Below, one piece after another: positions 115 through 38,020 of a stretch of 64,000 bases of DNA (position 1 is the first letter of the stretch; each line of letters opens with the position of its first letter). Location: assembly GCA_050952645.1 (NCBI GenBank), contig JBMNLI010000015.1, forward strand, positions 1-64,000, read 5' to 3'. The notes beneath the pieces were generated by a model. That model made no database searches, was not told where the DNA came from, and saw only the letters and a list, made by a program, of their open reading frames with translations. The translations under genes were made by a program, and so were the position numbers. This stretch comes from Bdellovibrionota bacterium. GTDB lineage: Bacteria > Bdellovibrionota_C > UBA2361 > CAKMMH01.

Positions 115-2250
115 ATGGCTAAAGATAATAATTTCACATTTGTAAAATGTCCATCGTGCAGTAGTTTAGTGCCTGCATTGTCGACTAGATGTAGAATGTG
201 TGGTGCAGATATTCAAGCACAAGATAGCAATGAGAACTCTGAGCCTAAAAAGCCGAGAACATCGAGAGTTAGGCAAAAAACTATGACTATTTCAGAAGAA
301 AAGAAAGATAGCTTTTTAGAAGAGATGGGAGTAAAGAAAGATACGCAAAGTTTTGAAGATGATAACGTAAATCCTCTCTCATATGAAGAAGAAAATTTTG
401 AAGAAAACGAATTAAGTGTAAATGAGCTAGATGTAAATGATCCACTCTCTTCATTTATAGATACCGCTACCGATGAAGAAGACATATTTATTAACGTTCC
501 AAGTGAAAGAGAGCCTCACGTTGAAGAATATTTTGGTGAGCCTATAATTGATGAGCCTATAAGTAGTGAAAATATAAATAAGTCAGATGGTGATGAAGAT
601 TATGAAGCTCCTTTTACTGAGCTTGAACCCGTAAATGAGATTGATAATAAAATGGATAATAAAGAAGATATAAGCGAAGATCTGTTTTCAGATTTAGTAG
701 ATGATATTTTTAGTGAAGACTTAGACTTTGATGATATCTTAGAAGAGGCCGATAAGGCATCGAAAGAACCTATTGGTGATCTAGAGTTATTGTTAAATGA
801 AGATGTAGAGCATGAGGCATTTGAAAAAATAGAAGAATCGCTACCTGAAAAAGATAGTAAAGAAAGCTATGAGAAAAGAGCTAAAGATAATATAAAAAGA
901 GAAATAAACAAAGAAATAAATAGAGAAACGAGAAAAGAAACGAGAGAAAATAAAAAGTTTTCAAATAGTGAAGATTTTTTAAGAGATATTTTTGATGAGG
1001 ACTCGGTAGAAGATAATATCGATAAAGACGACTACTTTGATGTAAGATCTAAAAGAGAAGATAATGCTCACTCAAAAAATAAATATTTTACTAAATCAAA
1101 CGATAAATTCGACGATGAATTTGTTGATGCTACAAAGGCGTTAAATATTAAAGATGATGGGAAAGATATGGATAAAGAAACTAAAGAAAATATAGCGAAT
1201 GCTAAAAGCAATGATAATTTAAAAGCTAATCAAAGAGATAATCAAAGAGACAATCAAAAAGCCGATGAAAAAAATATTGATAAGCTTACAAGAGAAGAAG
1301 AGAGAAGAAGGAAAAATAACGAAAGAAATAAAGAAAGAAAAAGAAAAAAGAAGTTGCGTTTAGCTAATGAAAGGAATGAAGAGAATAAAAATAGGGATAA
1401 TGAAAAAACTCAAAAAGCTACTCAGGAAATAAGTGTAGTTCCTGAGGTTAAAGAAACTTTTGAAAAACAAAAAAGTTTTAATTTAGCTAAAGGAGAGAAG
1501 AAAAACATTAAGCTTAATTTTGGCTCAAAACCTCAAGATAAAAAAGAAGATTATAAGGAAGATTATAAAGAAGATAAAAAAGATAGTATAAGAAAAGATA
1601 AGCCACTAGATGCACAAAAAGAATTAGCAAAAGACTCGCAAAAAGAGAAGCAAAAAGAAGAGCAAAAAGATTCGCAAAAAGAGAAGTTTGAGATAAAAAA
1701 AGAAGATGGAAATGTAAAATCAAAAGCTTTTCAAAGCGAAGATAAAGTCACTAAAAACATTACTGAAAACATTGCTGAAAATAATGTGAAAGAAGATAAT
1801 GCTGAAAATAAAATAGAAATTAAGCTAGAAAAAGTAAAAAAAGATAGCTTTTTAGATATACCAGAGCTAACTAAACCCGTTAAGGAGCTAGTCGATATTA
1901 AAAAGGCTAGTAAAGAAAGGCTTATAGGTTGGATAGTATCGTTTAAGAATCCTTTCGGCGAGGCATATGAGTTAAGAGAAGGAAAGCTTTTCGTAACTAA
2001 TAGCAAGCTTAAGGATAACGATTTTATTATAAAAGATGATTCAATCTCAACGCCTCACGCTTTAATTTCAATCTCTAAAAACGGTGTAAGTATCCAAGAT
2101 TTAATGAGCGATACGGGCGTTTATGTTAAGCATAGCAAAGAAGATAAATATGTAAAACAGGAAATGCCTTTTAAAGTTCAGCATGGGGATTGGATAAAAT
2201 TTGGAGACGTTGAATATTTAATCTCTTTATTAACGTATGTTGGAGAGTAG
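115..2250 (+). CDS. Zinc-ribbon / long charged low-complexity linker / C-terminal FHA-like domain protein, first gene of the T3SS-like operon
   Basis: N-terminal CPSC...CRMC; acidic then Lys/Glu-rich middle; C-terminal GWIVSF..YELREG..SISTPHALI..IQDLMSDTGVYV..HGDWIKFG fits the FHA pattern; RBS aggag upstream. Confidence 0.75.
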   Translation: MAKDNNFTFVKCPSCSSLVPALSTRCRMCGADIQAQDSNENSEPKKPRTSRVRQKTMTISEEKKDSFLEEMGVKKDTQSFEDDNVNPLSYEEENFEENELSVNELDVNDPLSSFIDTATDEEDIFINVPSEREPHVEEYFGEPIIDEPISSENINKSDGDEDYEAPFTELEPVNEIDNKMDNKEDISEDLFSDLVDDIFSEDLDFDDILEEADKASKEPIGDLELLLNEDVEHEAFEKIEESLPEKDSKESYEKRAKDNIKREINKEINRETRKETRENKKFSNSEDFLRDIFDEDSVEDNIDKDDYFDVRSKREDNAHSKNKYFTKSNDKFDDEFVDATKALNIKDDGKDMDKETKENIANAKSNDNLKANQRDNQRDNQKADEKNIDKLTREEERRRKNNERNKERKRKKKLRLANERNEENKNRDNEKTQKATQEISVVPEVKETFEKQKSFNLAKGEKKNIKLNFGSKPQDKKEDYKEDYKEDKKDSIRKDKPLDAQKELAKDSQKEKQKEEQKDSQKEKFEIKKEDGNVKSKAFQSEDKVTKNITENIAENNVKEDNAENKIEIKLEKVKKDSFLDIPELTKPVKELVDIKKASKERLIGWIVSFKNPFGEAYELREGKLFVTNSKLKDNDFIIKDDSISTPHALISISKNGVSIQDLMSDTGVYVKHSKEDKYVKQEMPFKVQHGDWIKFGDVEYLISLLTYVGE

Positions 2251-2252
2251 GT

Positions 2253-3125
2253 TTGAAATTACTTAAATTTATTATAACAATATTTTTTGTTTTTACTTTA
2301 TGCGGTTGTAGTAAGGAAATCGTCGCAAGGGGAATAGACCAAAAACAAGCGAATGAAATAGTTTCTATTTTTGCGAAATCAAATATTACTTCAAAAGTAG
2401 TAGATGACCCTAATGCAAAAAAACTATTAATGGTACAAGTTAGTAAAAAAGATTATAAAGCTGCTACTACAATATTAACTTTAAAAGGATTGCCTAGAGA
2501 TAAATCGGCAAACTTCTCTGAGATGATATCTAGACAAGGGATTTTGCCTGATTCAAAAAGGATAGAAGACCTTAGACTAGATAAAGCTTTAGCTTTAGAG
2601 ATAGAGGATAATTTATCTAAAATGCAAGAGTTTGCAAATGTTAGCGTAGTAGTAAGAAAGGAATATTTAAAGGACGATAAAGCGCCACTTGCTTCTATTT
2701 TAGTAATAAAAAAACCACACGTAGGTTTTTTTGATGAGAGAAAAATATTGAATATCGTAAAGACCGTTATTCCTGAAATAAAAGATGAGAATATAAAAAT
2801 TATAGTCGATACTGAAACGGTTCCTCCACACTTAAGCAACCAGTATGGTAGCATTTCAAAAGAAAAGGGAGAGCAAAAGCTAGTAAGATTAAATAAATTT
2901 TTAGGAAAATTTAGAATTGCTAGCGATGATTATAAGCAATTTAATATATTTTTAGCTATTATAGTTTTAGCTTCCTTATTGGTAGGATTTTTAGGTTCTC
3001 TTTTTTATATTAAATTAAAAAATATAAGGAAAGAGAAATCAAAAATAGTTGAGATATCTTCAAAAGATTTGCTAAAGGAAGCATCTTTTGAAAAAAGAGT
3101 AGTAAAAAAGGGAAATAATAAATAA
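2253..3125 (+). CDS. sctJ: Type III secretion inner-membrane ring lipoprotein, SctJ/YscJ/PrgK family
   Basis: Lipobox LCGC; GIDQKQANEIV, GLPR, GILP, ALALEIE motifs; C-terminal TM helix plus basic tail. Confidence 0.85.
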   Translation: MKLLKFIITIFFVFTLCGCSKEIVARGIDQKQANEIVSIFAKSNITSKVVDDPNAKKLLMVQVSKKDYKAATTILTLKGLPRDKSANFSEMISRQGILPDSKRIEDLRLDKALALEIEDNLSKMQEFANVSVVVRKEYLKDDKAPLASILVIKKPHVGFFDERKILNIVKTVIPEIKDENIKIIVDTETVPPHLSNQYGSISKEKGEQKLVRLNKFLGKFRIASDDYKQFNIFLAIIVLASLLVGFLGSLFYIKLKNIRKEKSKIVEISSKDLLKEASFEKRVVKKGNNK

Positions 3126-3343
3126 TGAAATTAGAAGATTTTCAAAATATGCCAGCATACGACAAAGCTTTAATTTGCAGTGCCGTTTTATTAGATGGCG
3201 AAAAGGCGGTTGCTTTTTTACAACTCGATGCTAAAAATGGGGCTAAATACGTTGAAGCATTAGAGATTTTTATTCGTATGCAAGAAGATATGAGATGCTC
3301 ATTAGCTGCTACTATTTTAAGGGATGCTCTAAATGACTTATAA
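3125..3343 (+). CDS. Small protein, weakly FliG-N-like
   Basis: Translationally coupled to sctJ; KALICSAVLLDGEKAVAFL loosely resembles the FliG N-terminal helices. Confidence 0.4.
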   Translation: MKLEDFQNMPAYDKALICSAVLLDGEKAVAFLQLDAKNGAKYVEALEIFIRMQEDMRCSLAATILRDALNDL

Positions 3344-3683
3344 TAAAGATTACTATGATGATGAGGAGATAATATCTCTTAAATCATATATAGAGAAAAT
3401 TAAAAAAGAAATTATAGAAAGACAAGATATCGTAAAGAAAAGCAAGGAAGAACTAGATGATTTATATGATAGTATGCAAAGTTTAGGAAGTGTATTTAAG
3501 AGAGCAGAAGAGGCGGTAAATTATAGTTTAAGAATACAAGAAAAGAATGTATTAAAAAAACAGATAGATATAAAAAGAAAAAATATAACTGAGCAAGAAA
3601 AAGATTTACAAAAAGCTAAAGAATTATTAAGTATAACGCAAAAAGAATTAGAAGAGCTAATAAAAGAGAGAATGATACAATGA
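3333..3683 (+). CDS. Coiled-coil protein, possible SctO/FliJ stalk
   Basis: 116 aa, entirely helical/coiled-coil composition, located within the T3SS-like operon. Confidence 0.45.
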   Translation: MTYNKDYYDDEEIISLKSYIEKIKKEIIERQDIVKKSKEELDDLYDSMQSLGSVFKRAEEAVNYSLRIQEKNVLKKQIDIKRKNITEQEKDLQKAKELLSITQKELEELIKERMIQ

Positions 3684-4699
3684 ACAGAGCTTCAAACGAT
3701 AACAACTGGGCTTTATGGTCGCCACTAGATGAATTATCTCAAGTGTCAACTAAAGAGATAATTTATTCAAAGGGATTTTTGCAATCGAACCCTGCGACGC
3801 TTTTTCCCTCATTTTCATCATTTTGGCAAAGTTTCTTTGAAAACTATTCGTTTGATATAGCTTTAGTCGATATAAAAAAATCACTAACCGTTCCAGATAA
3901 TATTTCACACTTATATAAAGGTATGATAGATAGAGAGCATATTTATGTAGGTTATGAAGATGATGAGTTTTCATATTTAGGAAACATAGTTATTCCAGCA
4001 GGAGATGAAAAAATTATTGAAATCATTATGGAGTATATGACTAGAAGGTTATTAGCTTCACTTTCTTTTTCTTGGACTGCTTCCGAAAATTCTATAATAT
4101 ATTTTGATGGCAAAACTAAGGAAAGTCCGAAATCTGAAGCTACAATCGTGCTTGATTTAAAAGTATCTGGCAAAAGAGTTAATGTTTATATAATGTGTCC
4201 ATATACGATAGTTAACACTATAGATAAATTATGGAAAGGACAAATTCAAGCCTCGTCGAAATATAGAGAGGTCTCAGAGGTATCTTTAGGTATTCAAATA
4301 GCAGAACTTGCCGTTTCTCCTGCTATGCTTAATGATTATTTAAGTAGTGGTGTAAGAGTGGGGTTAGAAAAGATAGTAAATGATAATGTTTATATAACTA
4401 AGGATAATAAGAAATTTTTAAAAGGACGATTAGTTCGTTCTAGTGATAGATTCGTTGTTGAAATTCTAGGTGGTATAGATACCGTAGCTGAAGCTTTAGA
4501 AGGAATGGTAAATATTTCAATACAACTTGGAAGTGTGCTAGTTCCTGGGTATGTAGTATCTGAGATATCTCAAAAAAATGTTTTATGGGATACGGGTTTA
4601 GAGATTACTAATGAAGTGGAAGTTTATGCAGATAATAAACTTTCTGCACATGCCGTATTGGCTTCTTATGATAAACAATTTGCAATAGAGGTGAAATAG
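3680..4699 (+). CDS. sctQ: SctQ/FliM-FliN-like sorting-platform protein with degenerate SpoA domains
   Basis: Directly upstream of sctR; two SpoA-like segments (GRLVRSSDRFVVEI; AVLASYDKQFAIEV). Confidence 0.6.
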   Translation: MNRASNDNNWALWSPLDELSQVSTKEIIYSKGFLQSNPATLFPSFSSFWQSFFENYSFDIALVDIKKSLTVPDNISHLYKGMIDREHIYVGYEDDEFSYLGNIVIPAGDEKIIEIIMEYMTRRLLASLSFSWTASENSIIYFDGKTKESPKSEATIVLDLKVSGKRVNVYIMCPYTIVNTIDKLWKGQIQASSKYREVSEVSLGIQIAELAVSPAMLNDYLSSGVRVGLEKIVNDNVYITKDNKKFLKGRLVRSSDRFVVEILGGIDTVAEALEGMVNISIQLGSVLVPGYVVSEISQKNVLWDTGLEITNEVEVYADNKLSAHAVLASYDKQFAIEVK

Positions 4700-4702
4700 T
4701 GT

Positions 4703-5419
4703 ATGAATGAGGGTATTATCTTATGTCTATCGATGCTACTTTTAACATCTTTTGTAAGGGTGTTTACCTCTCTTAGTATTTTAAGATATGGTTTAGGTCT
4801 ATATTCTTCAAGTTTTTCTCTTATCATATTTTTACTTTCAATAGCAATGAGTTTTTATATTGCATCGCCTTATATAGAAAAAGCTGGTGGTATATCAAAT
4901 GTAAATAATAATGTAAATAATTATGAAACGATGCAAGAAGAATTTAAACCGTTTATGGAAAAAAATGTAGATAAGGAGTTGTATAATAATTTTAAAAGTA
5001 AACTTAATAAAGTTATCTCTAATGGTGATATAAAAAACAAGCAAGCAAATACAAATGAAGGCAATCAAGAAAACAATCAAGAAAACAATCAAGAAAACAG
5101 GCAAGAAAACATGCAATTAAACGAACAAATAAACGCTAATGAGTCTTTAAAGGGGTTAAATAAGATAAGTAAAAAACAGGAGCTAGATTTACTAACATTT
5201 ACATTCGTTGTTTCGGAACTTAAAGATGCTCTAAAATATGGCGTTATGATTTTAATACCTTTTTTAATAATAGATTTAATAGTGATGAATATTTTTATGT
5301 CGTTAGGTATAAAAGATTTTTCTTATCTTATAGCTTCGCTTCCTATAAAGTTAGGAGTGTTTGTAGCTAGTGACGGACTTAGAATTATAAGTGAAAAGTT
5401 AATTTATTATTACATTTAA
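4703..5419 (+). CDS. sctR: Export gate protein SctR/FliP, divergent
   Basis: LTSFVRVFTSLSILRYGLG and SELKDA..IPFLIIDLIV..SLPIKLGVFVASDG match FliP/SctR signatures. Confidence 0.85.
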   Translation: MNEGIILCLSMLLLTSFVRVFTSLSILRYGLGLYSSSFSLIIFLLSIAMSFYIASPYIEKAGGISNVNNNVNNYETMQEEFKPFMEKNVDKELYNNFKSKLNKVISNGDIKNKQANTNEGNQENNQENNQENRQENMQLNEQINANESLKGLNKISKKQELDLLTFTFVVSELKDALKYGVMILIPFLIIDLIVMNIFMSLGIKDFSYLIASLPIKLGVFVASDGLRIISEKLIYYYI

Positions 5420-5424
5420 ATATT

Positions 5425-5673
5425 ATGTATATTTTTGAAAATTATGAGTTATTAAACATATTATATAAAGTATGCATATATATTATGCTACCTATTATAG
5501 CTTCAATGTTTATTGTTAGCCTGCTTTCTAGTGCTTTACAAAGTGTAATCGCTGTAAAAGATGAAACGATATCGTATTTATTAAAAATTATCGTTATGAT
5601 AGTGCTTTTATATTTTCTTTATCCGATAGCAAAAGAAATTTTAGTTGAACTTTTAGAGGTTTCGTTAAAATGA
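5425..5673 (+). CDS. sctS: Export gate protein SctS/FliQ
   Basis: 82 aa hydrophobic hairpin; LPII..SLL..LQSV..DETISYLLKI resembles the FliQ motif; follows sctR. Confidence 0.75.
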   Translation: MYIFENYELLNILYKVCIYIMLPIIASMFIVSLLSSALQSVIAVKDETISYLLKIIVMIVLLYFLYPIAKEILVELLEVSLK

Positions 5674-6236
5674 TTAGTGTAATAAAAAGTTCATATAAAA
5701 CATCCGTGTTTTTTTTAATCTTTTCGCTTATAGCTTTATTAAGCATGGCTAGCATTAATTTACTGCTTACTTTTAATTTTAATGTTTTGCAAATATCATT
5801 TTTTATAGTTAGCATTATTAGTGTTATTTTTTCCATATTTTTTCTTTGTGAAGTTTTAGAAAATAATTTTTTTATAGAGCATAATGCAAATCTGTTTAGT
5901 ATTTTTTGTGTAGTATGTGCAAGCTATTTTATGTTAGATGAGAAATTCTTAAGTAGCTTGTTAATTTATTTTGTTAGCAGGGCATCGCTAATAAATTATT
6001 TAATGTTATATTTGGCTTTTTTATCTCATATAATAGGTGCTATATTTACAGTAATTGTGAGCTTGTCGTTTTTACTCTATGCTCTAGAGCTGATTTTATC
6101 TAGCATAGTTTCATTTACTTCTTTTAAGAAAGTTTCTTTTTCATTTGTAAAGCAAGTGTCTATTATTTTTATAATTGCTTTGTCCTTTAAGTCTATTCTT
6201 TCGTTAATTTTAAGGGAGGTTGTAGGAAAATGGTAA
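5670..6236 (+). CDS. Degenerate SctT/FliR-like membrane protein
   Basis: Very hydrophobic, 188 aa, in the canonical R-S-T-U position; only weak C-terminal similarity. Confidence 0.5.
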   Translation: MISVIKSSYKTSVFFLIFSLIALLSMASINLLLTFNFNVLQISFFIVSIISVIFSIFFLCEVLENNFFIEHNANLFSIFCVVCASYFMLDEKFLSSLLIYFVSRASLINYLMLYLAFLSHIIGAIFTVIVSLSFLLYALELILSSIVSFTSFKKVSFSFVKQVSIIFIIALSFKSILSLILREVVGKW

Positions 6237-6838
6237 AAGAGTTTTTCCCAACAAAAGAGAGAGTAGATGAGTTAAGAAGCGCTGGGGTTTTTGCGTATTC
6301 TACAACTACTATAAGATTTTTAGTTTTTGCTTTATTTTTAATTTTATTATTTGTTTTTAAAAAAGATGTAAGTTCTTTTTTTAAAATAGCGCAAAGTTTT
6401 TTTAATAATGATGCAGTATCATTAAAAGGGGTAATAAAAATTTTTTTAATATTTAACATTAGTATTTTAATTTTTATTATTTCTTTAATATTGCTTCATA
6501 GTAGGTTTTCTTTTGATTTTAAGAATTTTTTAGGATTTCGTTTAACTACTAATGAGAATAATAAGGAAAGGAATATAGTTTTTGCTATATTATACTCTTT
6601 AAGTGTGATAGCTTATTTGTTTTTAGTGTATATTTTCTCTATGGAGTTTTTAAGTTTATTAAATAATAATTATAGCGATATTTTGCCACTAATATTTAAT
6701 AATATAGATAAGGGAATGTTAATTATTTCTTGTTTATTCGTTTTTTTAGGGGTATTGTCATTTTTATTTAGTAATTTTTCCTTTTTAAATAAGCATAAAA
6801 TGTCGATACAAGATATAGAAGCTGAGAAAAATGATTAA
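6230..6838 (+). CDS. sctU: SctU/FlhB N-terminal membrane domain only
   Basis: FPTKERVDELRSAGVFAYS resembles PTxKK..AR..G.V..S; ends at KMSIQDIEAE (the KMS..E.K.E linker); no NPTH domain. Confidence 0.7.
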   Translation: MVKEFFPTKERVDELRSAGVFAYSTTTIRFLVFALFLILLFVFKKDVSSFFKIAQSFFNNDAVSLKGVIKIFLIFNISILIFIISLILLHSRFSFDFKNFLGFRLTTNENNKERNIVFAILYSLSVIAYLFLVYIFSMEFLSLLNNNYSDILPLIFNNIDKGMLIISCLFVFLGVLSFLFSNFSFLNKHKMSIQDIEAEKND

Positions 6839-6855
6839 AATATTTAAGGATATTT

Positions 6856-7092
6856 ATGGGAAGTGAGATAAAAGAGAACAAGACGCTTTTTAAGCCAGAT
6901 ATATTTAACAAGGCACCGCTTATGGTGCTTATGCCTAAGATGGGTAATTTAGCAGGTCTAGAGGTTTTATACAATTCTTTTTTTGCTAGGTATGATGTTT
7001 TAAAGAAAGAAAGAGAAAAAACGCAAAAATTTATAGATGATGGTGAAGAAAAGATGTTAAGAACGATTATCTCTTGGATTTCGGGTGAATAA
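6856..7092 (+). CDS. Hypothetical protein in the T3SS-like operon
   Basis: 78 aa ORF with RBS aagga, closely spaced between neighbours. Confidence 0.6.
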   Translation: MGSEIKENKTLFKPDIFNKAPLMVLMPKMGNLAGLEVLYNSFFARYDVLKKEREKTQKFIDDGEEKMLRTIISWISGE

Positions 7093-7095
7093 ATT

Positions 7096-7533
7096 ATGAA
7101 GATAGAGGATATAAAAAAGAAATATTTAGATGAAGAGTTAGATGCGATATACTCTTTAGGACTTGCATTTATAGAAAATGGCGACTGTGTAAAAGCGAGA
7201 AATATTTTTGAAGGATTAATAGAGGTTGATAATACGTATCTTCCTGGGATTCAAGGAATGATATATTTAGAGATAGAGGCAAGGGATTTCCAAGATGCTA
7301 TTAAACTATGTCAAAAGGCTTTAGAACTCGAGCCTAACTCTTATGAGGTTATGCTTATGTACGTGTCTTGTTTAATTTCCATAGAAGATTACAGCAAGGC
7401 AGGAACGTATTTAGGTGAAATTTCCGATGCAATCGAAGATAGACTTATAGATGACTATGATATTATTCGTTTTTATAAATCTCAAATAATAAGATACCAG
7501 AATTTAAGCTCTTTGCGTCCAAGGGAGAATTAA
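7096..7533 (+). CDS. TPR protein, SycD/LcrH-like class II T3SS chaperone
   Basis: Acidic 145 aa; LDAIYSLG..GD..KA..IFEGL followed by TPR repeats; last gene of the operon. Confidence 0.65.
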   Translation: MKIEDIKKKYLDEELDAIYSLGLAFIENGDCVKARNIFEGLIEVDNTYLPGIQGMIYLEIEARDFQDAIKLCQKALELEPNSYEVMLMYVSCLISIEDYSKAGTYLGEISDAIEDRLIDDYDIIRFYKSQIIRYQNLSSLRPREN

Positions 7534-8013: not shown

Positions 8014-9402
8014 ATGAAATATGTTGAATCTGAAACGGTCGAGTTAAAAGCTAAATATACAGATAATTTTATTAAGGCTGTAGTCTCTTTTTTAAATAGT
8101 GAAGGGGGGATTGTATATATAGGCATTCAAAATGATGGAACTATAGTAGGTGTTAAAGATATAGATCGTGTGCTTAAAAATATTTCAGATTGCATAACAG
8201 ATCAAATTGAACCGACTCCACGTGGAGAAATTACGAGTGAAATAATATATGAAGAAAATGTCCCAATCATTGCAGTTAATGTAAAAAAGGGAATTAAGCC
8301 TCTTTATTGTATAAAAAAATATGGGTTCTCGACGAAAGGTTGCCTTTCAAGAATAGGAACGACTTGCAAAGAAATGTCATCAGAAGAGATACAGTTTCGA
8401 TATAAATCGCAATTTATTAATGATGATTATATGTTGATAGCTCCGTCAAAGTATGCGCCACTATCATTTAATATGATGAAAATTTTACTTACGAGTAGAG
8501 GTTTTCATATTAATGAAAATTCTTTTGAGGCGTCATTTAATCTCAAGAGAAGTGATGGAGCGTATAACTTGCTTGCGGAAGTTTTAGCAGACAAAAATAT
8601 GGTGCCACTAGTATTTGTAAAATTTTCTGGTGAAGATAAAACTTCTATTTCTCAAAGAAGCAATTATGGTGAGCAGAGTTTACTTCTAGGCTACCAAAAA
8701 ATGAAAGACAGGTTGATTGCTGAGAATATATGTAAAACCGATACTTCAGTTCGTCCTAGAATAGATGAGTATCTATACGATATAAATTGCGTTAATGAAG
8801 CACTCGTTAATATGTTAGTTCATAATGATTGGACGATTACAGAACCGCAAATATCCTTTTATTCTAATCGTGTCGTTTTTACCTCTCATGGAGGACTTCC
8901 GCATGGAATTACTAAAGAAGAATTCTTTAATGGAGTTAGTAGGCCAAGAAATGCGGTGCTAATGAGAGTATTTTTAACACTTGGAATTGTTGAACACACA
9001 GGGCATGGGGTGCCTATAATCGTTAAAAAATATGGAAAAGAGGCTTTTGATATTCATAGTAATTACATTGATGTTTCTATACCTTTTAATCAAAATGTTT
9101 TGGCATCTATGTTAAGCAATGGTGTAAACGGTGTTGTCTTAAATGATATTGATAGTGAAGATATTAGTAGTGCTAGCGTAGATGATAACGCTATGCGTGC
9201 TACTAATGAAGATTTATCTGATACGGAAAAAAAATTGATTTTGGAGTTAGTTCAAGAGCCTGAAATTACATATAGTCAGTTAGCATCAAAGATTGGTATT
9301 TCAAGAAGAACGGTATCAAGAGTTATAAATTCATTAGTTCAGAAAAAATATATTGAAAGAGTAGGTGATAATAAATCTGGATTTTGGAAAATTATACGCT
9401 GA
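8014..9402 (+). CDS. AlbA_2 (Schlafen-like) + HATPase_c_4 + C-terminal winged-HTH protein (often annotated RecG-like or transcriptional regulator)
   Basis: ESETVELK..VSFLNSEGGIVYIG; EALVNMLVHNDW; PRN..LG.VE.TGHG; ITYSQLASKIGISRRTV..IERVG..KSGFW. Confidence 0.85.
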   Translation: MKYVESETVELKAKYTDNFIKAVVSFLNSEGGIVYIGIQNDGTIVGVKDIDRVLKNISDCITDQIEPTPRGEITSEIIYEENVPIIAVNVKKGIKPLYCIKKYGFSTKGCLSRIGTTCKEMSSEEIQFRYKSQFINDDYMLIAPSKYAPLSFNMMKILLTSRGFHINENSFEASFNLKRSDGAYNLLAEVLADKNMVPLVFVKFSGEDKTSISQRSNYGEQSLLLGYQKMKDRLIAENICKTDTSVRPRIDEYLYDINCVNEALVNMLVHNDWTITEPQISFYSNRVVFTSHGGLPHGITKEEFFNGVSRPRNAVLMRVFLTLGIVEHTGHGVPIIVKKYGKEAFDIHSNYIDVSIPFNQNVLASMLSNGVNGVVLNDIDSEDISSASVDDNAMRATNEDLSDTEKKLILELVQEPEITYSQLASKIGISRRTVSRVINSLVQKKYIERVGDNKSGFWKIIR

Positions 9403-9527
9403 TATAGTAAGTTGCTACTAGGTATTGATTTAGAATACTACTTGTATCTTAGAGTGATATTAAGTAAAATAATAGAAAGCAGTTTTAAAATCTAATCTTT
9501 TAATAAATATCTTTTAAAAAAGTCGTT

Positions 9528-10202
9528 ATGAATACAGATAAAATAATAAAAAAATATTGGATAATGGGTTTCCCTTATTTTGAATCAAGATTGTTTTTCG
9601 TTCCAAATGATATAGGAAGAAATTATGAGTCGCTCGTAAAAATGAAATTATACGACCCCGATGGAGCACTTATAAATGAAATAAAAATGCTAGTCAGCTC
9701 AAAATGTCCGCTAATTTTAGATTTAGAAAATTTTATGGGAGATTGCAAGCCTGAGTCTGGTATAAAGTACGGTTTGCTAGTTTGTGAAATGGATGAATAT
9801 ATAGATAGCTACCTAAGATTTCAAACTAAAAAAACTGGGGTATTCGTAGGAGAGTTAAATGAATTTAATAATAAAGCACCACTCTTTTTCCCAGTCTATT
9901 TTTCTAAGGAAAGAAATAGCGTTTTGATGCTAAGAAATAGCGAGCTTAGCGATGTTAAAATAGAATATAAAATTTTAAAAGATAATAGGGCACCAGTAAA
10001 AACTATAACTTTACAAAAAATGCACTCTAGAATAATTTTTTTAAATAATGCTTTTAAAGAACTTGTGAGCGATTTTAATGAAAAAGATTTTCAAGCGTAT
10101 TTAAGATTGTCATGCGTTGAAGGTGATTCAGTAGTCGGAGCTCAGATTATAGATTATAATGCTAACGAAAATTTAGAAGGAGATTTTTCTTCTATAGCTT
10201 AA
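9528..10202 (+). CDS. Hypothetical protein
   Basis: 224 aa ORF, no recognised motif. Confidence 0.7.
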   Translation: MNTDKIIKKYWIMGFPYFESRLFFVPNDIGRNYESLVKMKLYDPDGALINEIKMLVSSKCPLILDLENFMGDCKPESGIKYGLLVCEMDEYIDSYLRFQTKKTGVFVGELNEFNNKAPLFFPVYFSKERNSVLMLRNSELSDVKIEYKILKDNRAPVKTITLQKMHSRIIFLNNAFKELVSDFNEKDFQAYLRLSCVEGDSVVGAQIIDYNANENLEGDFSSIA

Positions 10203-10358
10203 AGGTTAATTTTTTTTTAATAGTTTAAATGAAAATTAGAGTTAGCTTTAGCTAGCAGAAACTTTTTTTTAGGAGCGTAGTTAGAGAATATAATTTTTAT
10301 GATTTTGAAAATGATTTTGAAAATATGAAGAACTAAAAATTTAGGAATAAAATAAATT

Positions 10359-11072
10359 ATGAAAAATATTAAATGGGTTTCATTTTGTGCATCGAATAAA
10401 GTGTTAAAAACGGTTATACATTTTTTCCCAAAGGTATTAAATGTAGCGACTCAATATCCCGTGATTTGCAAATTAGGATTATTTGGAGAAGGGAAAGATG
10501 CAGGAACCGTTATGGTAGATGGAGTAAGGATAAATCAAGCTAGTGGGATTTTATTAGACACGGCTTTCCCAAGTCTTAATGGAGATTACGCAGGATTTAT
10601 CGGGCTTTCAATAGAGTTTTCTTTAAGGCAGCAATCTCCTAATTTTGAAAAATTAAGTTCACTTATAGAGCTAGTGTCTTTTTCTTCATCGACTCATTTT
10701 TACCCAACATTAGTTAGCGAAGAAGAAAAGAAAAGAGCGTTTTTAAAATCGTTTCCAGTATTATTTGATACGTTATCGGAGCCAAGTTTGTTATTAGTAA
10801 ATTCGACTCTTACAGAGTTTAGGACGAATGTTCTAAACGTTGAAAATACTCTAGTAGTAGAGAATTTGCAATCATTGCCTCTAACTGCAAAAGAATATAC
10901 TTTAGATGGTTTAGATAATTTTAATGATAAGAGCAGCGTTTTTAACTCTTGTTGGACTAATGGCTACTTATCTTTATTAAGATTTGATAGTGAGATCCCA
11001 GCAGGTGTAGGCGTATATATTTTATGTAGAGATAAGTTGACGAGAAAAATTACTTCTTGTTTTAGTTTATAA
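10359..11072 (+). CDS. Hypothetical protein
   Basis: 237 aa ORF, no recognised motif. Confidence 0.7.
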   Translation: MKNIKWVSFCASNKVLKTVIHFFPKVLNVATQYPVICKLGLFGEGKDAGTVMVDGVRINQASGILLDTAFPSLNGDYAGFIGLSIEFSLRQQSPNFEKLSSLIELVSFSSSTHFYPTLVSEEEKKRAFLKSFPVLFDTLSEPSLLLVNSTLTEFRTNVLNVENTLVVENLQSLPLTAKEYTLDGLDNFNDKSSVFNSCWTNGYLSLLRFDSEIPAGVGVYILCRDKLTRKITSCFSL

Positions 11073-11098
11073 TTATAATTTTTTAAGGTAAAAAGACG

Positions 11099-11917
11099 AT
11101 GATTACTTTTTTTTCTCCTTATGGCACATTGATTAAAGAAAGTGGTTTTATGTATATGTTTGCTAGGTATATTAGCACATTTTACTCTAATATAAGCCAG
11201 CTGAAATGCAACGGTCTTTTTACTATTTGTAGTAGGGATTATTTAGAGAAAGAAAGAAGAGATTTTTTAATGTGTAGTAATTGTATGGCGTGTCAAGATG
11301 AGCTAGCTAATTGGAGCGAGATAAGCTCTTTTGAGTTATCAAAATGTTTAAGAGCAGATGCTTTAAGATATATAAAAAAAGAATTTTTATTAGTTCCCGA
11401 TGAAGAGCTTAATAATGTGTATTATGAAGAGCTAAATATTTATGATTTATGTCGGGGGTCATTTTTTAATTTTGTAGGCAATGAAATGCCAGATATTAGC
11501 AATAAAAAGAATTTACAATTAGTAAAAAAGATTATGTTATCTTCTATAAAAGTTATTGAAGCTATAAAAACGTATTATTCCAATGAAAGCCCTAGTTTGT
11601 TTTTTATCCCTTCTAGTAAAGATTTTTTAACGCATTCTATTTTAGAATATTTAAAGATAGCTAACAAAAATTTTGTCGAGATCGATTGGAGTGAAGAGAA
11701 AAATATATTTAGTATTATAAATAGTAGCAAGAAAGAATTAAAGCAGTACGAGATTTATATAGATAGTATAATTCATTTTAGGAATGATTGTTCTACTTGG
11801 CCAGAAGAGTTTATAAATATGTTAAACGATGTAGCAAATTTTGTAGGGCTTAGTGATAAGATAAGTGATACAAGCAATAATATAATAAATAGAGATAGTT
11901 ATGATAATGCTGTGTAA
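11099..11917 (+). CDS. Hypothetical protein with a Cys cluster, resembling the N-terminal part of capsule-biosynthesis proteins
   Basis: LKCNGLFTIC...MCSNCMAC motif; family assignment tentative. Confidence 0.5.
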   Translation: MITFFSPYGTLIKESGFMYMFARYISTFYSNISQLKCNGLFTICSRDYLEKERRDFLMCSNCMACQDELANWSEISSFELSKCLRADALRYIKKEFLLVPDEELNNVYYEELNIYDLCRGSFFNFVGNEMPDISNKKNLQLVKKIMLSSIKVIEAIKTYYSNESPSLFFIPSSKDFLTHSILEYLKIANKNFVEIDWSEEKNIFSIINSSKKELKQYEIYIDSIIHFRNDCSTWPEEFINMLNDVANFVGLSDKISDTSNNIINRDSYDNAV

Positions 11918-33868: not shown

Positions 33869-36800
33869 ATGAAAAAAATAAATAAAGTGTCTAATATATT
33901 CCTACTATTTTTATTTTCAATAAGTTTTATAGGGGCAAACGTAGCTAGCGCTACTATGACGGATAATCAAGCTAAGCGTGTTGAAAATTTTGGGAGAAGT
34001 GATTTAGGTAGCATGTATTTATTCTATGCGCTAGAGAAAGCGCTGGCCGATAATGGCATTGCAACCGATTTAAAGTGTAAGTATAGTTCGCACCCTAATA
34101 AAGTTCCTGAGGTCGCATATACTGCTTTTGGATTAGATATAAACAATGCTAACGATAAAGCTTCGTTAGAAGCACTTCTTAATAACTCTACTTTTCCTTA
34201 TTGTTCTTCAGAGTTTACTAGAAATATGTATGTAGGTAAAAGTGTAGCGGCTAATGATGAGACGGCAGATGAGTTTTGTAAAGCTATGGGCTACGAAGCG
34301 TATATCGCAGGTTCTGGGCAAACATCTAAATATAGCTCTTATGGTAGTGAGTTAGTAGTGTCTTATGATACAAAAAGTGGTAACTGGAAACGTGCTACTA
34401 ATGGAACTCACTATATTACTTTAACGTGCGGAACTACAAAATGCATGAAAGATGATGATTGCAAAGAGAGTCAATATTGCGCACCAAATGGCACTTGCGT
34501 TTCTTTTAGTAATGATTATTTAGCTGAATGTAATAATGGTAAAGATGATGATGGTGATGGGAAAATAGATGATAAAGACCCAGAGTGTAAAGGTTTCGTA
34601 GGTGGCACTGGGTATATAGATACGATATTGATGAATGAAACACAGGGGCAATATAAAGCATCTTGTGAAACTTACACGATGCCTAAAGATGGTGAAATTT
34701 TAATAAATTTAAAAGATGATGATGTAGCGGTTATAGTAAAAAGAAAAGATGATAATAAAACTGTGATTTTAGCTAAAAGCAACGATCCTTTTCCTTTTGG
34801 AAGTTGCGCAGTGTCTACTCCAATAAATCAAGCAGATGCAAATAATAAAACTAATAAAAGAAATGGTAGTTTAGGTCAAAACGATGCAATTTTTTACGGT
34901 AGAGATGGAAAACTAGTAGCATATTTTCAAGCAGACGGGCATCGCACAGTTCCAGATAAAGCATGGAGTCCTAAGTATGAAGACAGGAAATTAAGAACTG
35001 TAAGTCTTAAGGCTGGTGATGTTGTTTATCTAGCTACAAGGTCTGATAAAACTGCTAACTCAAGAAATCCTAACACCATAGTAAGATTTCAAGAACCACG
35101 TAATTTTAGAGAATCGGTTTGCGATGTAAACTATGGCGATACTACTTCTGGTAAAAGAGTATGCTCAACGCTTGCTAAGCCAGTATGCTCAAAGGGAAGT
35201 TGTGTAGCGTGCCCAGCAAGTCAAGTTTACAACAAGACTCTAAAAGCATGTGTTGAATGTATAAGTGATACCGATTGTAAATCTGGTCAAGCTTGCCAAA
35301 ACAATAAGTGTCTAGATAAATACACTTGTTCAAAAAATACTACTACGGGTAAAGTGGTAGTTAATAAAAATGGAGTAGAGTTAACTACTAAATTAGATAA
35401 GTGTGAAGGCAATAAGCAATACGTGTATACTTGCCCATCGACAACTTCGGTAGGCACTGAGATAGTAGTAAAAGAGACTATTACCAACTGTAAGTATGGT
35501 TGCGATACTAAAACTAAAAAATGCTATGACACAGAGTGTGACGCAAACTACGGTGATACCACTTCGGGCAAAAAAGCTTGTAAAACGATTGCTAAACCAG
35601 TATGTAGCGATGGAAGCTGCGTAGGTTGTCCTAATAGCGAAGTTTATAGCGAAGATAAAAAATCTTGCGTAGCTTGCGTAGTAGATGGCGATTGCGCAAA
35701 GGGGCAAGTGTGCCAAAACAATAAGTGCTTAAATAAATACACTTGTTCAAAAAATACTACTACGGGTAAAGTGATAGTTAATAAAAATGGAGTAGAGTTA
35801 ACTACTAAATTAGATAAGTGTGAAGGCAATAAGCAATACGTGTATACTTGCCCATCGACAACTTCGGTAGGCACTGAGATAGTAGTAAAAGAGACTATTA
35901 CCAACTGTAAGTATGGTTGCGATACTAAAACTAAAAAATGCTATGACACAGAGTGTGACGCAAACTACGGTGATACCACTTCGGGCAAAAAAGCTTGTAA
36001 AACGATTGCTAAACCAGTATGTAGCGATGGAAGCTGCGTAGGTTGTCCTAATAGCGAAGTTTATAGCGAAGATAAAAAATCTTGCGTAGCTTGCGTAGTA
36101 GATGGCGATTGCGCAAAGGGGCAAGTGTGTCAAGACAATAAGTGCTTAGATAAATACACTTGTTCAAAAAATACTACTACGGGTAAAGTGATAGTTAATA
36201 AAAATGGAGTAGAGTTAACTACTAAATTAGATAAGTGTGAAGGCAATAAGCAATACGTGTATACTTGCCCATCGACAACTTCGGTAGGCACTGAGATAGT
36301 AGTAAAAGAGACTATTACCAACTGTAAGTATGGTTGCGATACTAAAACTAAAAAATGCTATGACACAGAGTGTGACGCAAACTACGGTGATACCACTTCG
36401 GGCAAAAAAGCTTGTAAAACGATTGATAAACCAGTATGTAGCGATGGAAGCTGCGTAGGTTGTCCTAATAGCGAAGTTTATAGTGAAGATAAAAAATCTT
36501 GCGTAGCTTGTGTAGAAGATAGTGATTGTGAAGCAGGGCAAGTGTGTCAAGATAATAAGTGTTTAGATGAATATACTTGTGCTAAAGATGATACAGGCAA
36601 AGTGGTAGTTAAGAAAAATGGTGTAGAAATAACGGCTAAATCGAAAACAGATAAGTGTGAAAATGATAAGCAATATGAATACACTTGCTCAGCTACTACT
36701 TTAGTAGGCACTGAGATAACCGTAAAAGAAACTATTACTAATTGTGAACATGGCTGTAATAGTGAAACTAAAAAATGCAATGATGCTGAGTGTGATGTAA

Positions 36801-38020
36801 ATTACGGAGATACTACTGAAGGGAAAAAAGCTTGCTCAGAAGATAAACCAATATGTGAAAATGGAAGTTGCAAAAGCTGTCCAAACAATGAAATATACAA
36901 CATAAGCCAAATGAAATGTGTAGAGTGTAATGTAGATACGGATTGTAAAGACGGCTTGGTTTGCGATAAGGATAATAATAAGTGCGTAGATAAGCAAAAA
37001 GCAGTGATACCACTATTTAATTGTATAATCGATAATTTAGATGGAACCTACACGGCATATTTTGGTTATGAAAACCCTAATGCTGAGGTAATAAATGTTC
37101 AAGCTTGTTCAAATAAGCAAGGAGCTAAGAATATTATAAATAACACTACGACTTATTGTGAGCAACCTAGCGAGTTTGAGGTAGGAACTGTAAAGGGAGC
37201 TTTCTACGTTCCGTTTAGCCAAGGACAAACAGTATCGTGGACTTTACAAAATAATAGCGAGGCTGAAAAAACGGTTTCTGCAACTAGTGCATCTGTAAGA
37301 TGTGCACCGTTAGAGCCTTATGCTCAATGTATAGATAGAAATAAAGATGGCTCATATAAGGCACATTTTGGGTATACTAATAGAAATGGCTTTGAGGTTG
37401 AAATTCCAAATGGTTCTGCTAACAATTTATCGACTAATGAAAATGTTCAGCCTGAGCATTTTGTTGCAGGAAAAATAGATAACGCTTTAAGTATAGATTT
37501 TACAGAAAGTGCTACTTGGAATTTAGATGGAAACAAAGCTACTGCTACTAAGAAGACTAAACCTTGTATAGAGGTAAACTGCACTGAGACTTCAATAGTT
37601 CAAGCTAAGAAATCACTACATGGAGATGAGTTTGTAGAGATGCTTGAAGCTGAAACGGAAAGCTTACTTGAAGAATTAAATCCATTTCCTCAAATAAGAG
37701 ATATCGAAGCTTCGGCAGATAGAAGAATAAACAGAGCTGAGAAAAATAACGATACGATTAAAAAACTTGTCCTTAAGCTTCCAGATGTAATGTTTAATTG
37801 TGATAACGCAGATTTCTGTCCGCTTTACGATAATCAAGGAACATTAAACTTGATTGAAAGAAAGTTAAGAAAACTTCGTAGACAAGTTGGAAGAACGATA
37901 AGACAAAGAAACATCGATGAGAAAACCAGAACTAGACTTCTTAATATCAATGCCCAAATCTTGGCAGGAAAGATAAGCGCACTTAATTCGATCCCAAGAT
38001 TTGCTAATGATTGTGATTAA
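33869..38020 (+). CDS. Large secreted Cys-rich repeat protein A
   Basis: Signal peptide; CNNGKDDDGDGKIDDKDPEC putative metal-binding motif; 139-aa Cys repeats; two YxAxFGYxN modules; basic helical C-terminus. Confidence 0.85.
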   Translation: MKKINKVSNIFLLFLFSISFIGANVASATMTDNQAKRVENFGRSDLGSMYLFYALEKALADNGIATDLKCKYSSHPNKVPEVAYTAFGLDINNANDKASLEALLNNSTFPYCSSEFTRNMYVGKSVAANDETADEFCKAMGYEAYIAGSGQTSKYSSYGSELVVSYDTKSGNWKRATNGTHYITLTCGTTKCMKDDDCKESQYCAPNGTCVSFSNDYLAECNNGKDDDGDGKIDDKDPECKGFVGGTGYIDTILMNETQGQYKASCETYTMPKDGEILINLKDDDVAVIVKRKDDNKTVILAKSNDPFPFGSCAVSTPINQADANNKTNKRNGSLGQNDAIFYGRDGKLVAYFQADGHRTVPDKAWSPKYEDRKLRTVSLKAGDVVYLATRSDKTANSRNPNTIVRFQEPRNFRESVCDVNYGDTTSGKRVCSTLAKPVCSKGSCVACPASQVYNKTLKACVECISDTDCKSGQACQNNKCLDKYTCSKNTTTGKVVVNKNGVELTTKLDKCEGNKQYVYTCPSTTSVGTEIVVKETITNCKYGCDTKTKKCYDTECDANYGDTTSGKKACKTIAKPVCSDGSCVGCPNSEVYSEDKKSCVACVVDGDCAKGQVCQNNKCLNKYTCSKNTTTGKVIVNKNGVELTTKLDKCEGNKQYVYTCPSTTSVGTEIVVKETITNCKYGCDTKTKKCYDTECDANYGDTTSGKKACKTIAKPVCSDGSCVGCPNSEVYSEDKKSCVACVVDGDCAKGQVCQDNKCLDKYTCSKNTTTGKVIVNKNGVELTTKLDKCEGNKQYVYTCPSTTSVGTEIVVKETITNCKYGCDTKTKKCYDTECDANYGDTTSGKKACKTIDKPVCSDGSCVGCPNSEVYSEDKKSCVACVEDSDCEAGQVCQDNKCLDEYTCAKDDTGKVVVKKNGVEITAKSKTDKCENDKQYEYTCSATTLVGTEITVKETITNCEHGCNSETKKCNDAECDVNYGDTTEGKKACSEDKPICENGSCKSCPNNEIYNISQMKCVECNVDTDCKDGLVCDKDNNKCVDKQKAVIPLFNCIIDNLDGTYTAYFGYENPNAEVINVQACSNKQGAKNIINNTTTYCEQPSEFEVGTVKGAFYVPFSQGQTVSWTLQNNSEAEKTVSATSASVRCAPLEPYAQCIDRNKDGSYKAHFGYTNRNGFEVEIPNGSANNLSTNENVQPEHFVAGKIDNALSIDFTESATWNLDGNKATATKKTKPCIEVNCTETSIVQAKKSLHGDEFVEMLEAETESLLEELNPFPQIRDIEASADRRINRAEKNNDTIKKLVLKLPDVMFNCDNADFCPLYDNQGTLNLIERKLRKLRRQVGRTIRQRNIDEKTRTRLLNINAQILAGKISALNSIPRFANDCD
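35287..36570 (+). repeat. About three near-identical 417-bp tandem repeats in protein A
   Basis: Near-identical antisense ORFs at 35393, 35810 and 36227 (offset 417 bp); degenerate partial copies on both sides. Confidence 0.9.

Follow-up and report, generated by a model that had tools for sequence, protein, structure and literature searches.

Loss of the methionine gasket and glutamine belts from a conserved third type III export gate in a class of Bdellovibrionota

The type III export gate encoded near the start of the DNA analysed here lacks the methionine gasket and the glutamine belts, and this loss is real and class-wide. The DNA (the window, 64,000 nucleotides) forms the beginning of contig C15 in a genome of 1.95 Mb that is 94% complete. 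The Met gate and Gln belts were defined in earlier work (PMC7943601, PMC8239009) and, together with the plug, have been described as a mechanism universal to type III secretion (PMC8239009). Judged from its sequences, the gate in the window, designated gate B, is an old and conserved third type III export core.

The genes of gate B lie on the plus strand between positions 115 and 7533 (Table 1), in the order FHA-domain protein, SctJ, 72-aa protein, coiled-coil protein, SctQ, SctR, SctS, 188-aa protein, SctU, 78-aa protein and TPR protein. No Pfam, PDB or Atlas match was obtained for the 72-aa protein, and its interpretation as a FliG fragment was unsupported (Prob 0.7%). The coiled-coil protein matches the family at the same position in other orders (E 9e-6) and compares with FliJ at Prob 0.6%. 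A resemblance of the 78-aa protein to SctX found no support in a PDB profile search, which gave no credible match, and the TPR protein scores under the cut-offs of both TIGR02552 (E 6e-7) and NF052415 (E 2e-4). Positions 8014-11917 of the window, which separate the gate B cluster from the flagellar genes, contain a gene for an AlbA_2/RecG-C/HTH protein and three ORFs unmatched in Pfam; many relatives have FliA-like sigma genes after the cluster instead. Further downstream, positions 33869-38020 and 38258-43234 encode tandem paralogous and very large Cys-rich repeat proteins of 1383 and 1658 aa that have their N- and C-terminal domains in common.

Table 1 Features of the gate B gene cluster in the window
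Feature	Position	Strand	Evidence or remark
Zn-ribbon and FHA-domain protein with long acidic low-complexity middle	115..2250	+	Pfam FHA E 1.8e-8; family f12, 26 B loci
SctJ-like inner-membrane ring lipoprotein	2253..3125	+	YscJ_FliF E 1e-10; TIGR02544 E 8e-23, under cut-off
72-aa conserved protein, AVLLDG motif	3125..3343	+	Family f14
Coiled-coil protein in SctO/FliJ position	3333..3683	+	Label from position and shape only
SctQ-like C-ring protein	3680..4699	+	FliMN_C E 1.5e-5; family f7, 30 B loci
SctR of gate B, 238 aa	4703..5419	+	FliP/SctR Pfam E 3e-32
GLGLYSSSF, Q2-belt segment of SctR	4790..4816	+	Profile alignment to FliP
QENN-repeat insertion in SctR periplasmic domain, strain-specific	5054..5116	+	Missing in 8 close relatives; pLDDT 57-66
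SLGIKDFSY segment of SctR	5300..5326	+	Sequence read
I-K-D on the three M-loop positions	5309..5317	+	Profile alignment to FliP
SctS of gate B, 82 aa	5425..5673	+	FliQ/SctS E 6e-8
LQSVIAVKDET, lost Q-x-Q-x-Q belt of SctS	5536..5568	+	Alignment
188-aa hydrophobic protein in SctT position, likely shortened SctT	5670..6236	+	Transitive profile link
Stretch aligned to FliR/SctT plug, about 10 residues short, no DP motif	5859..5891	+	Position inferred
SctU, membrane part only	6230..6838	+	Bac_export_2 positions 5-218 of 335
78-aa conserved protein, always directly before TPR gene	6856..7092	+	Family f11, 27 B loci
TPR protein, weakly LcrH/SycD- and SctY-chaperone-like	7096..7533	+	Family f4, 34 B loci

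For each of FliP/SctR, the FlhB/SctU membrane part, FlhA/SctV and FliF/SctJ, the window's genome encodes three proteins, against only two type III ATPases and two secretins. Its export gates are the flagellar gate (loop M-I-T), a non-flagellar gate A on contig C10 (loop M-Y-M) and gate B. Gate B was recovered in 38 of 40 relatives of the same order and gate A in 37 of 40, the relatives without a recovered A or B being genomes that are only 62-89% complete. Three genomes of 92-97% completeness (G021, G023, G034) gave no flagellar FliP match, yet have both A and B; the flagellar comparison covers only 30 flagellar loci fetched from relatives. B-type SctR was also read in 25 of the 30 loci returned from other orders of the class (33 genomes), and the 120 genomes sampled from the phylum-level group of the window all belong to this same class. 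The B-type SctR family comprises about 150 clusters at 50% identity. In a quick tree of 80 proteins, a 99% branch sets gate B and its other-order kin apart from the rest, another 99% branch splits A and B from flagellar FliP, and several of the B branches are long.

The non-flagellar system of gate A, the second one without a secretin, has an intact Met loop and intact Gln belts (C17:277565-283884 and C10:227027-232236). Its neighbours include a sigma factor, a gene with weak likeness to SctI (Pfam E 0.004) and a conserved protein of about 100 aa, whose resemblance to the needle subunit SctF received no support from a PDB profile search. The SctU of gate A is naturally split into a membrane part of about 250-270 aa that ends near the cleavage site (C17:22292-23062) and a separate FlhB C-terminal-part gene of about 90 aa nearby (C17:20174-20452). 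This split occurs in at least 11 loci (L082-L118), the small gene usually lying after a histidine-kinase-like gene. Between sctR and sctS of gate A there is a reverse-transcriptase gene (C10:228115-229416), which we take to be of the group II intron type; an apparently identical copy occupies positions 58718-60019 of the window.

The SctR of gate B is a member of the FliP/SctR family by Pfam, over the cut-off, and it remains under the equivalog cut-offs of TIGR01102 and TIGR01103. Its AlphaFold model (pLDDT 85.9) matches FliP/SpaP chains in Foldseek with prob 1.00. The initial annotation had read the usual GMMM loop as SLGIKDFSY, with Lys and Asp in place of Met, and the G.QQ.PP segment as GLGLYSSSF. 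Both readings were borne out when a profile of 35 gate B orthologues was aligned to solved FliP chains. The alignment is ungapped at both sites, with G-V-T-Q-L-S of gate B opposite G-M-M-M-L-S of FliP and G-L-K-G-L-G opposite G-L-Q-Q-T-P, and thus aligns I-K-D of the window's protein with the three Met positions and L-Y-S-S with the Q2 belt, the Gln of which is gone.

At least two Met residues are present in the loop of 72 of 77 canonical FliP and 31 of 39 gate A SctR proteins (with two G037 fragments dropped and the MMM-type FliP of G033 counted as canonical), as compared to none of the 39 gate B copies and none of the 25 other-order B-type copies. The same was found for all 149 that could be anchored among 150 B-profile representatives, which are the best matches to the profile and were chosen without regard to gene context. 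The loop of gate B has a hydrophobic-polar-polar consensus, I/V-T-Q. Its position 1 is still hydrophobic and only the lumen-facing positions 2 and 3 are polar, both of these being non-hydrophobic in 37 of 39 gate B copies, 18 of 25 other-order copies and 135 of 149 representatives. Gln is found at position 3 in 94 of the 149, and a charge at position 2 or 3 in 7 of the 39. The K/D loop is a local form, with V-K-D in 7 of 10 close matches, and IKDF as a new conserved motif is ruled out, since it is a family-level variant of the order consensus. Hydrophobic residues still at the gate positions, or relatives retaining GMMM, had been named in advance as observations that would speak against a loss; neither was borne out, given the counts at positions 2 and 3 and the finding that GMMM occurs in no relative's B copy. 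As to the Q2 positions, Gln is found in 5 of 39 B copies versus 36 of 39 A copies, and residue 34 of this belt, with Gln in 92% of A, shows the lowest conservation among 176 columns of the B-type proteins. Fixed at 97-100% in the 150 representatives are F17, G30, G32, P186, D191, P214, K216, F220 and G225. GMMM is not universal even in flagella, since the flagellar FliP of this class (G000:C15:91136-92222 and its kin) has M-I-T in 32 of 32 copies.

The claim that the Q..TQIQEQ motif of SctS is replaced by LQSVIAVKDET held for the Q-x-Q-x-Q belt, which is lost, but not for the helix Gln and the salt-bridge pair, which are kept. That annotation had placed both ORFs and all three segments correctly. 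No Q1-belt Gln is left in 32 of 39 gate B SctS proteins, whereas at least two are present in 33 of 33 gate A SctS proteins, a count that excludes four mis-picked gate A ORFs. The salt bridge in B has Asp or Glu in 36 of 39 copies (Asp in 22) and Lys or Arg in 39 of 39; the window's protein has Asp and Lys.

The 188-aa protein that follows SctS is likely a shortened SctT. ORFs at this position measure 153-230 aa in gate B and mostly 210-286 aa in gate A. Direct comparisons with the protein gave little: it has no Pfam match, a profile comparison with FliR and gate A SctT gave Prob <1%, its model (pLDDT 75) had no Foldseek match under E 0.001 and none to FliR/SctT, VIA-align returned generic helical bundles only (best Z 10.0, rmsd 5.1, 184 aligned), and an Atlas look-up yielded nothing usable. 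The relationship is instead suggested by a transitive link, in which the 188-aa protein matches the same-position protein of other orders (profile Prob 59%, E 9e-5) and the latter matches gate A SctT (profile Prob 97%); all three other-order copies that were checked are over the Pfam cut-off for Bac_export_1 (FliR). According to the transitive alignment, the plug is about 10 residues shorter in gate B; the SctT alignment (A3) omits 12 of 39 ORFs, which comprise weak, short or mis-picked rows and some near-duplicates. A predicted complex of three SctR subunits with the 188-aa protein lends weak support, with a score of 0.37 against 0.00 for the best control, contact agreement of at least 50% and partner pLDDT of at least 48. 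Of the solved pairs, 116 of 157 attained the same mark, as did 2 of 215 mismatched ones; only 18 solved pairs and both mismatches did so at scores of 0.60 or less, and resemblance to solved gates may contribute.

Every SctU of gate B that was read, 32 from the order and 17 from other orders, ends short of the autocleaving cytoplasmic switch domain, and its length in the 32 B loci is 173-242 aa. A frameshift hiding the C-domain was rejected, since the three plus-strand frames show no continuation past the stop. As far as the genes tell, the erosion of gating elements in gate B reaches SctT and SctU as well.

Such erosion could in principle mean that a defunct secretion system is decaying, be it in this strain or in a whole lineage, and gate B is indeed the most divergent of the three gates, with an operon that is often broken and shortened SctT and SctU proteins. 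We nevertheless consider decay highly improbable. Intact ORFs occur in 38 of 40 relatives within the order and in 25 genomes of other orders, the family comprises the roughly 150 clusters mentioned above, and the three genomes without a flagellar FliP match retain gate B. For SctR of the window against that of a genus mate, dN/dS is 0.11 for gate B, 0.10 for gate A and 0.10 for the flagellar gate, with dS near saturation; the least saturated pair (G025/G036) gave 0.16 for SctR, 0.31 for SctS, 0.26 for SctT and 0.27 for SctU, and 0.04 for the flagellar gate. These values (0.11-0.31 over the four proteins) indicate that gate B is constrained, yet less than the flagellar gate. Strain-specific decay is ruled out by the spread of the gate, the loop statistics and dN/dS.

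The genomic setting connects gate B to a Tad pilus. Two non-flagellar types of SctV were distinguished, one of about 620 aa that occurs with a sigma factor, SctJ, SctQ and a small conserved protein (21 loci), and one of about 700 aa that is located directly after TadB/TadC and before a pseudokinase in 21 of 21 loci, one of these contigs showing TadC only. The gate B SctV of the window's genome (G000:C12:114771-116855) was given to B by gene order; all membrane-domain motifs are conserved in 21 copies, with 66% in that domain as compared to 57% for the SctV of gate A. The complete gene run reads CpaB-CpaF-TadB-TadC-SctV-pseudokinase-multi-FHA-FHA-SctJ-72aa-coiled coil-SctQ-SctR-S-T-U and is preceded, in six continuous loci, by phosphatase-FHA-kinase-CpaE-Flp. 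From phosphatase to SctRSTU it is present in seven genomes, with gate B as the tail and all genes on a single strand, and the intergenic gaps in six full runs are mostly below 100 bases, few being larger. Among 20 other-order B loci with long flanks, the run is unbroken on a single strand in six, reaches SctV at the contig end in two, ends earlier at the contig end in four and is broken in eight. Within the order of the window, the run is complete in G004 and extends as far as SctV, at a contig end, in G035; the Tad features detected by Pfam in G004 are the Flp pilin, CpaB, CpaE, the CpaF ATPase, TadB, TadC and FHA proteins. In the window's genome and most of the order, the Tad-SctV half is separate from the SctJ-SctRSTU half. 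The pieces in the window's genome are on C17, C12 (Tad locus at C12:108545-114610) and C15, and only the multi-FHA gene is absent, which would be expected just before the start of C15, its place in close kin. A counter-case is G040, where gate B adjoins the SctV cluster of gate A on the opposite strand. A literature search, with most subscription papers and all supplements outside its coverage, found no description of such an arrangement. The window's genome also has a second Tad locus (G000:C9:48100-56080, L238) with CpaE, Flp, CpaB, CpaF, TadB, TadC and two TadE/TadG-like ORFs; neither a secretin nor SctV was found in it.

No secretin, needle or rod gene, or type III ATPase is present in the seven full runs. 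Genomes have two or three secretins, all outside the run, and the two of the window's genome lie in T2SS-like and PilQ-like contexts, from which they were named; small rod/needle-like genes accompany gate A only. With a match threshold of E 1e-90, more than two type III ATPases were found in none of 41 genomes of the order, despite the presence of up to three gates. The two ATPases of the order are FliI and a stand-alone SctL-SctN, the neighbours of which link it neither to A nor to B in 21 loci. In G023 and G034 (94-97% complete), A, B and both SctV types are kept and no type III ATPase was found; the best match in G023 belongs to a second F-ATPase operon, as reading of the locus showed, and the three matches in G034 were judged by score. 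A third, slowly evolving SctL-SctN clade was observed in all five other-order genomes tested (loci L241, L244, L246, L248, L249) and was not found among the 41 genomes of the window's order. This clade may be the ATPase of gate B, lost in the window's order alongside the erosion of SctT, SctU and SctS. In G043 both A and B occur with the third ATPase clade alone, which is compatible with either assignment.

SctRST nucleates the rings of the basal body. Our preferred reading, to which we give an even chance, is that gate B is a scaffold that does not export and that couples the rings formed by SctV, SctJ and SctQ to the Tad motor. Nucleation of these rings would be the task of SctRSTU, and the rings, with FHA/kinase/phosphatase signalling, would position the pilus and trigger it at cell contact. 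The proteins would still form the usual cup, but no polypeptide would pass through it, so that the lumen residues would be relaxed. Since neither a rod nor a needle would ever be inserted, the packing of SctS and the loop of SctU would keep the cup closed. The machine, which is known here from its genes, would serve contact-dependent predation. A scaffold fits best because the substrate-contact elements, the switch domain, the axial subunits and probably the ATPase are jointly lost, with frame and SctV intact. The M-loop, the Q1 and Q2 belts, the plug and the SctU switch domain erode together in a frame that is kept, two genomes of 94-97% completeness keep B without a detected type III ATPase, and the run from Tad-SctV to SctR is unbroken in 6 of 20 other-order loci as well as in G004. 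Several observations are less easily accommodated, including the mild Gln preference at loop position 3, which pure relaxation does not require, the intact SctV motifs and kept chaperone-like TPR gene, and the SctT-position protein without fold match to FliR/SctT. Furthermore, the third ATPase clade of other orders may belong to B and the order's single stand-alone SctL-SctN could be shared, the Tad and SctRSTU halves are apart in most of the order, 8 of 20 other-order loci are broken and G040 deviates, and the results leave without explanation how a leak is avoided in the absence of gasket or plug.

Work on Salmonella bears directly on this issue. Position 1 of the loop is structural there, and gates with polar residues at positions 2 and 3 leak but export; S, T, N or Q at these positions and plug loss strongly raise ion permeability, and FliR without plug leaks and still exports (PMC8239009). 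Single charges and strictly charged loop residues block export with little leak, and the M-E-R pair is motile (PMC8239009). Thus, because a polar loop, the M-E-R pair and plug deletion are all compatible with export in Salmonella, residue losses alone do not mean that there is no export. Leaky gates do cost Salmonella growth (PMC8239009, PMC7943601), belt and FliQ-loop mutations impair secretion (PMC7943601, PMC7064499), and isolated FliPQR is closed, but with gasket and plug present (PMC7064499).

These data give weight to the main rival of a scaffold, which corresponds to the non-canonical cargo suggested in the initial annotation and which we regard as rather unlikely: gate B would be an unsealed exporter whose polar ring (I/V-T-Q, here I-K-D) lets unfolded effectors into the periplasm, driven by SctV together with an SctN that is either shared or encoded separately, and the Tad pilus would replace the needle in delivery to the target. 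Brief assembly, limited to contact, would make the leak tolerable. Export competence of polar loops, of an opposite-charge pair and of plug-less FliR in Salmonella (PMC8239009) agrees with this; K-D of the window and 6 of 25 other-order loops are pairs of that kind. So do the intact SctV motifs, the third SctL-SctN clade in 5 of 5 other-order genomes, in which the gate B SctT is full length, and the fact that the same model was proposed for Kil/T3SS* of Myxococcus (PMC12075869). However, all four substrate-contact elements are gone together from gate B, and the mutation of single elements of this kind already impairs secretion (PMC7943601, PMC7064499), SctU lacks the substrate-docking domain, the run has no candidate substrate gene, and the third ATPase was not found in the 41 genomes of the order.

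It is improbable that gate B is a regulated or open ion or solute conduit, the polar ring of which passes ions as a contact signal or for coupling to the Tad motor, even though both changes that raise permeability, S/T/N/Q and plug loss, match gate B, in which neither position is hydrophobic in 135 of 149 representatives. A loop that ranges from neutral T-Q to K-D and E-R would make a poor selective filter, leaky gates slow growth (PMC8239009, PMC7943601), and charged residues blocked export with little leak (PMC8239009). The original guess of a permanently open, ion-conducting channel was the least likely of the four, since leaks cost growth and strictly charged loops block export (PMC8239009, PMC7943601), whereas scaffold-only, also among those guesses, fits best. 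A wider proposal, for which we see a fair but somewhat less than even chance, is that a hybrid of Tad motor and type III basal body forms one unit throughout the class, its gate having changed from an unsealed channel with ATPase, as in other orders, to an ATPase-free hub in the order of the window.

What the class offers is a paralogue without gasket and belts that is under purifying selection, with two Met-keeping gates as controls in the same genomes. The conservation of such a gate-less paralogue implies that the channel role of SctRSTU is separable from its structural role. The shared run also provides independent genomic support for the open proposal that the Kil pilus and the needle-less T3SS* of predatory bacteria form a single complex, and it names candidate couplers, i.e. 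the pseudokinase, the multi-FHA membrane protein and two small conserved proteins. If the hybrid machine is real, it would be a genetic fusion of Kil and T3SS*, which are kept apart in Myxococcus, and the class would show successive natural steps in the evolution of a protein channel into a scaffold. If the SctR loop of myxobacteria were also free of Met, what is new would shrink to the fused layout.

The closest known counterpart is Kil/T3SS* of Myxococcus xanthus (MXAN_2434-2464), which likewise combines a Tad motor, FHA proteins, a basal body without secretin and needle, and LcrH-like chaperones. Kil and T3SS* co-localise and were proposed to be a single complex (PMC12075869); the system is also treated in PMC11509652. 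However, Kil and T3SS* of Myxococcus are encoded in separate clusters (PMC12075869, PMC10433427, PMC12428579), the T3SS* cluster carries SctN/SctL (PMC10433427) and Kil has its own secretin (KilC/RcpA), whereas gate B is part of a single gene run without type III ATPase and secretin. Gate B further lacks gasket, belts and SctU switch domain; no named myxobacterial SctR was among the 120 matches listed. A review calls the co-occurrence of Kil and T3SS* restricted to Cystobacterinae (PMC12428579), and Kil-like Tad systems are described as common in Bdellovibrionota (PMC13200544). The gate B machine works like Kil/T3SS* but is not classed as a member of it, in view of the shared run, the lack of ATPase and secretin in the run and the failed tests for a canonical gate.

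The short and long non-flagellar 'Myxo' loci likewise represent two secretin-less systems per genome, vertically kept and once regarded as relics (PMC3459982). Unlike these, as far as they are described, the present class within Bdellovibrionota has one system that is joined to Tad and gate-less and another with Met and rod/needle-like genes. With the canonical gate, SctR5S4T1U1/FliP5Q4R1B1 (PDB 6f2d, 6r6b, 6s3l, 7ah9), gate B shares the SctR fold, the R-S-T-U order, the scaffold residues, the SctS salt bridge and an FlhB-like membrane part; it differs in its hydrophobic-polar-polar M-loop, the disappearance of Q1 and Q2, the short plug and the truncated SctU. Finally, polar loop variants of FliP occur in nature and pair with Asp in the FliQ salt bridge (PMC8239009), a pairing to which the flagellar pair of this class conforms, with M-I-T in FliP and Asp in 29 of 29 FliQ proteins. 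These natural FliP variants are isolated and found in working flagella, whereas gate B is a whole paralogue without gating elements.
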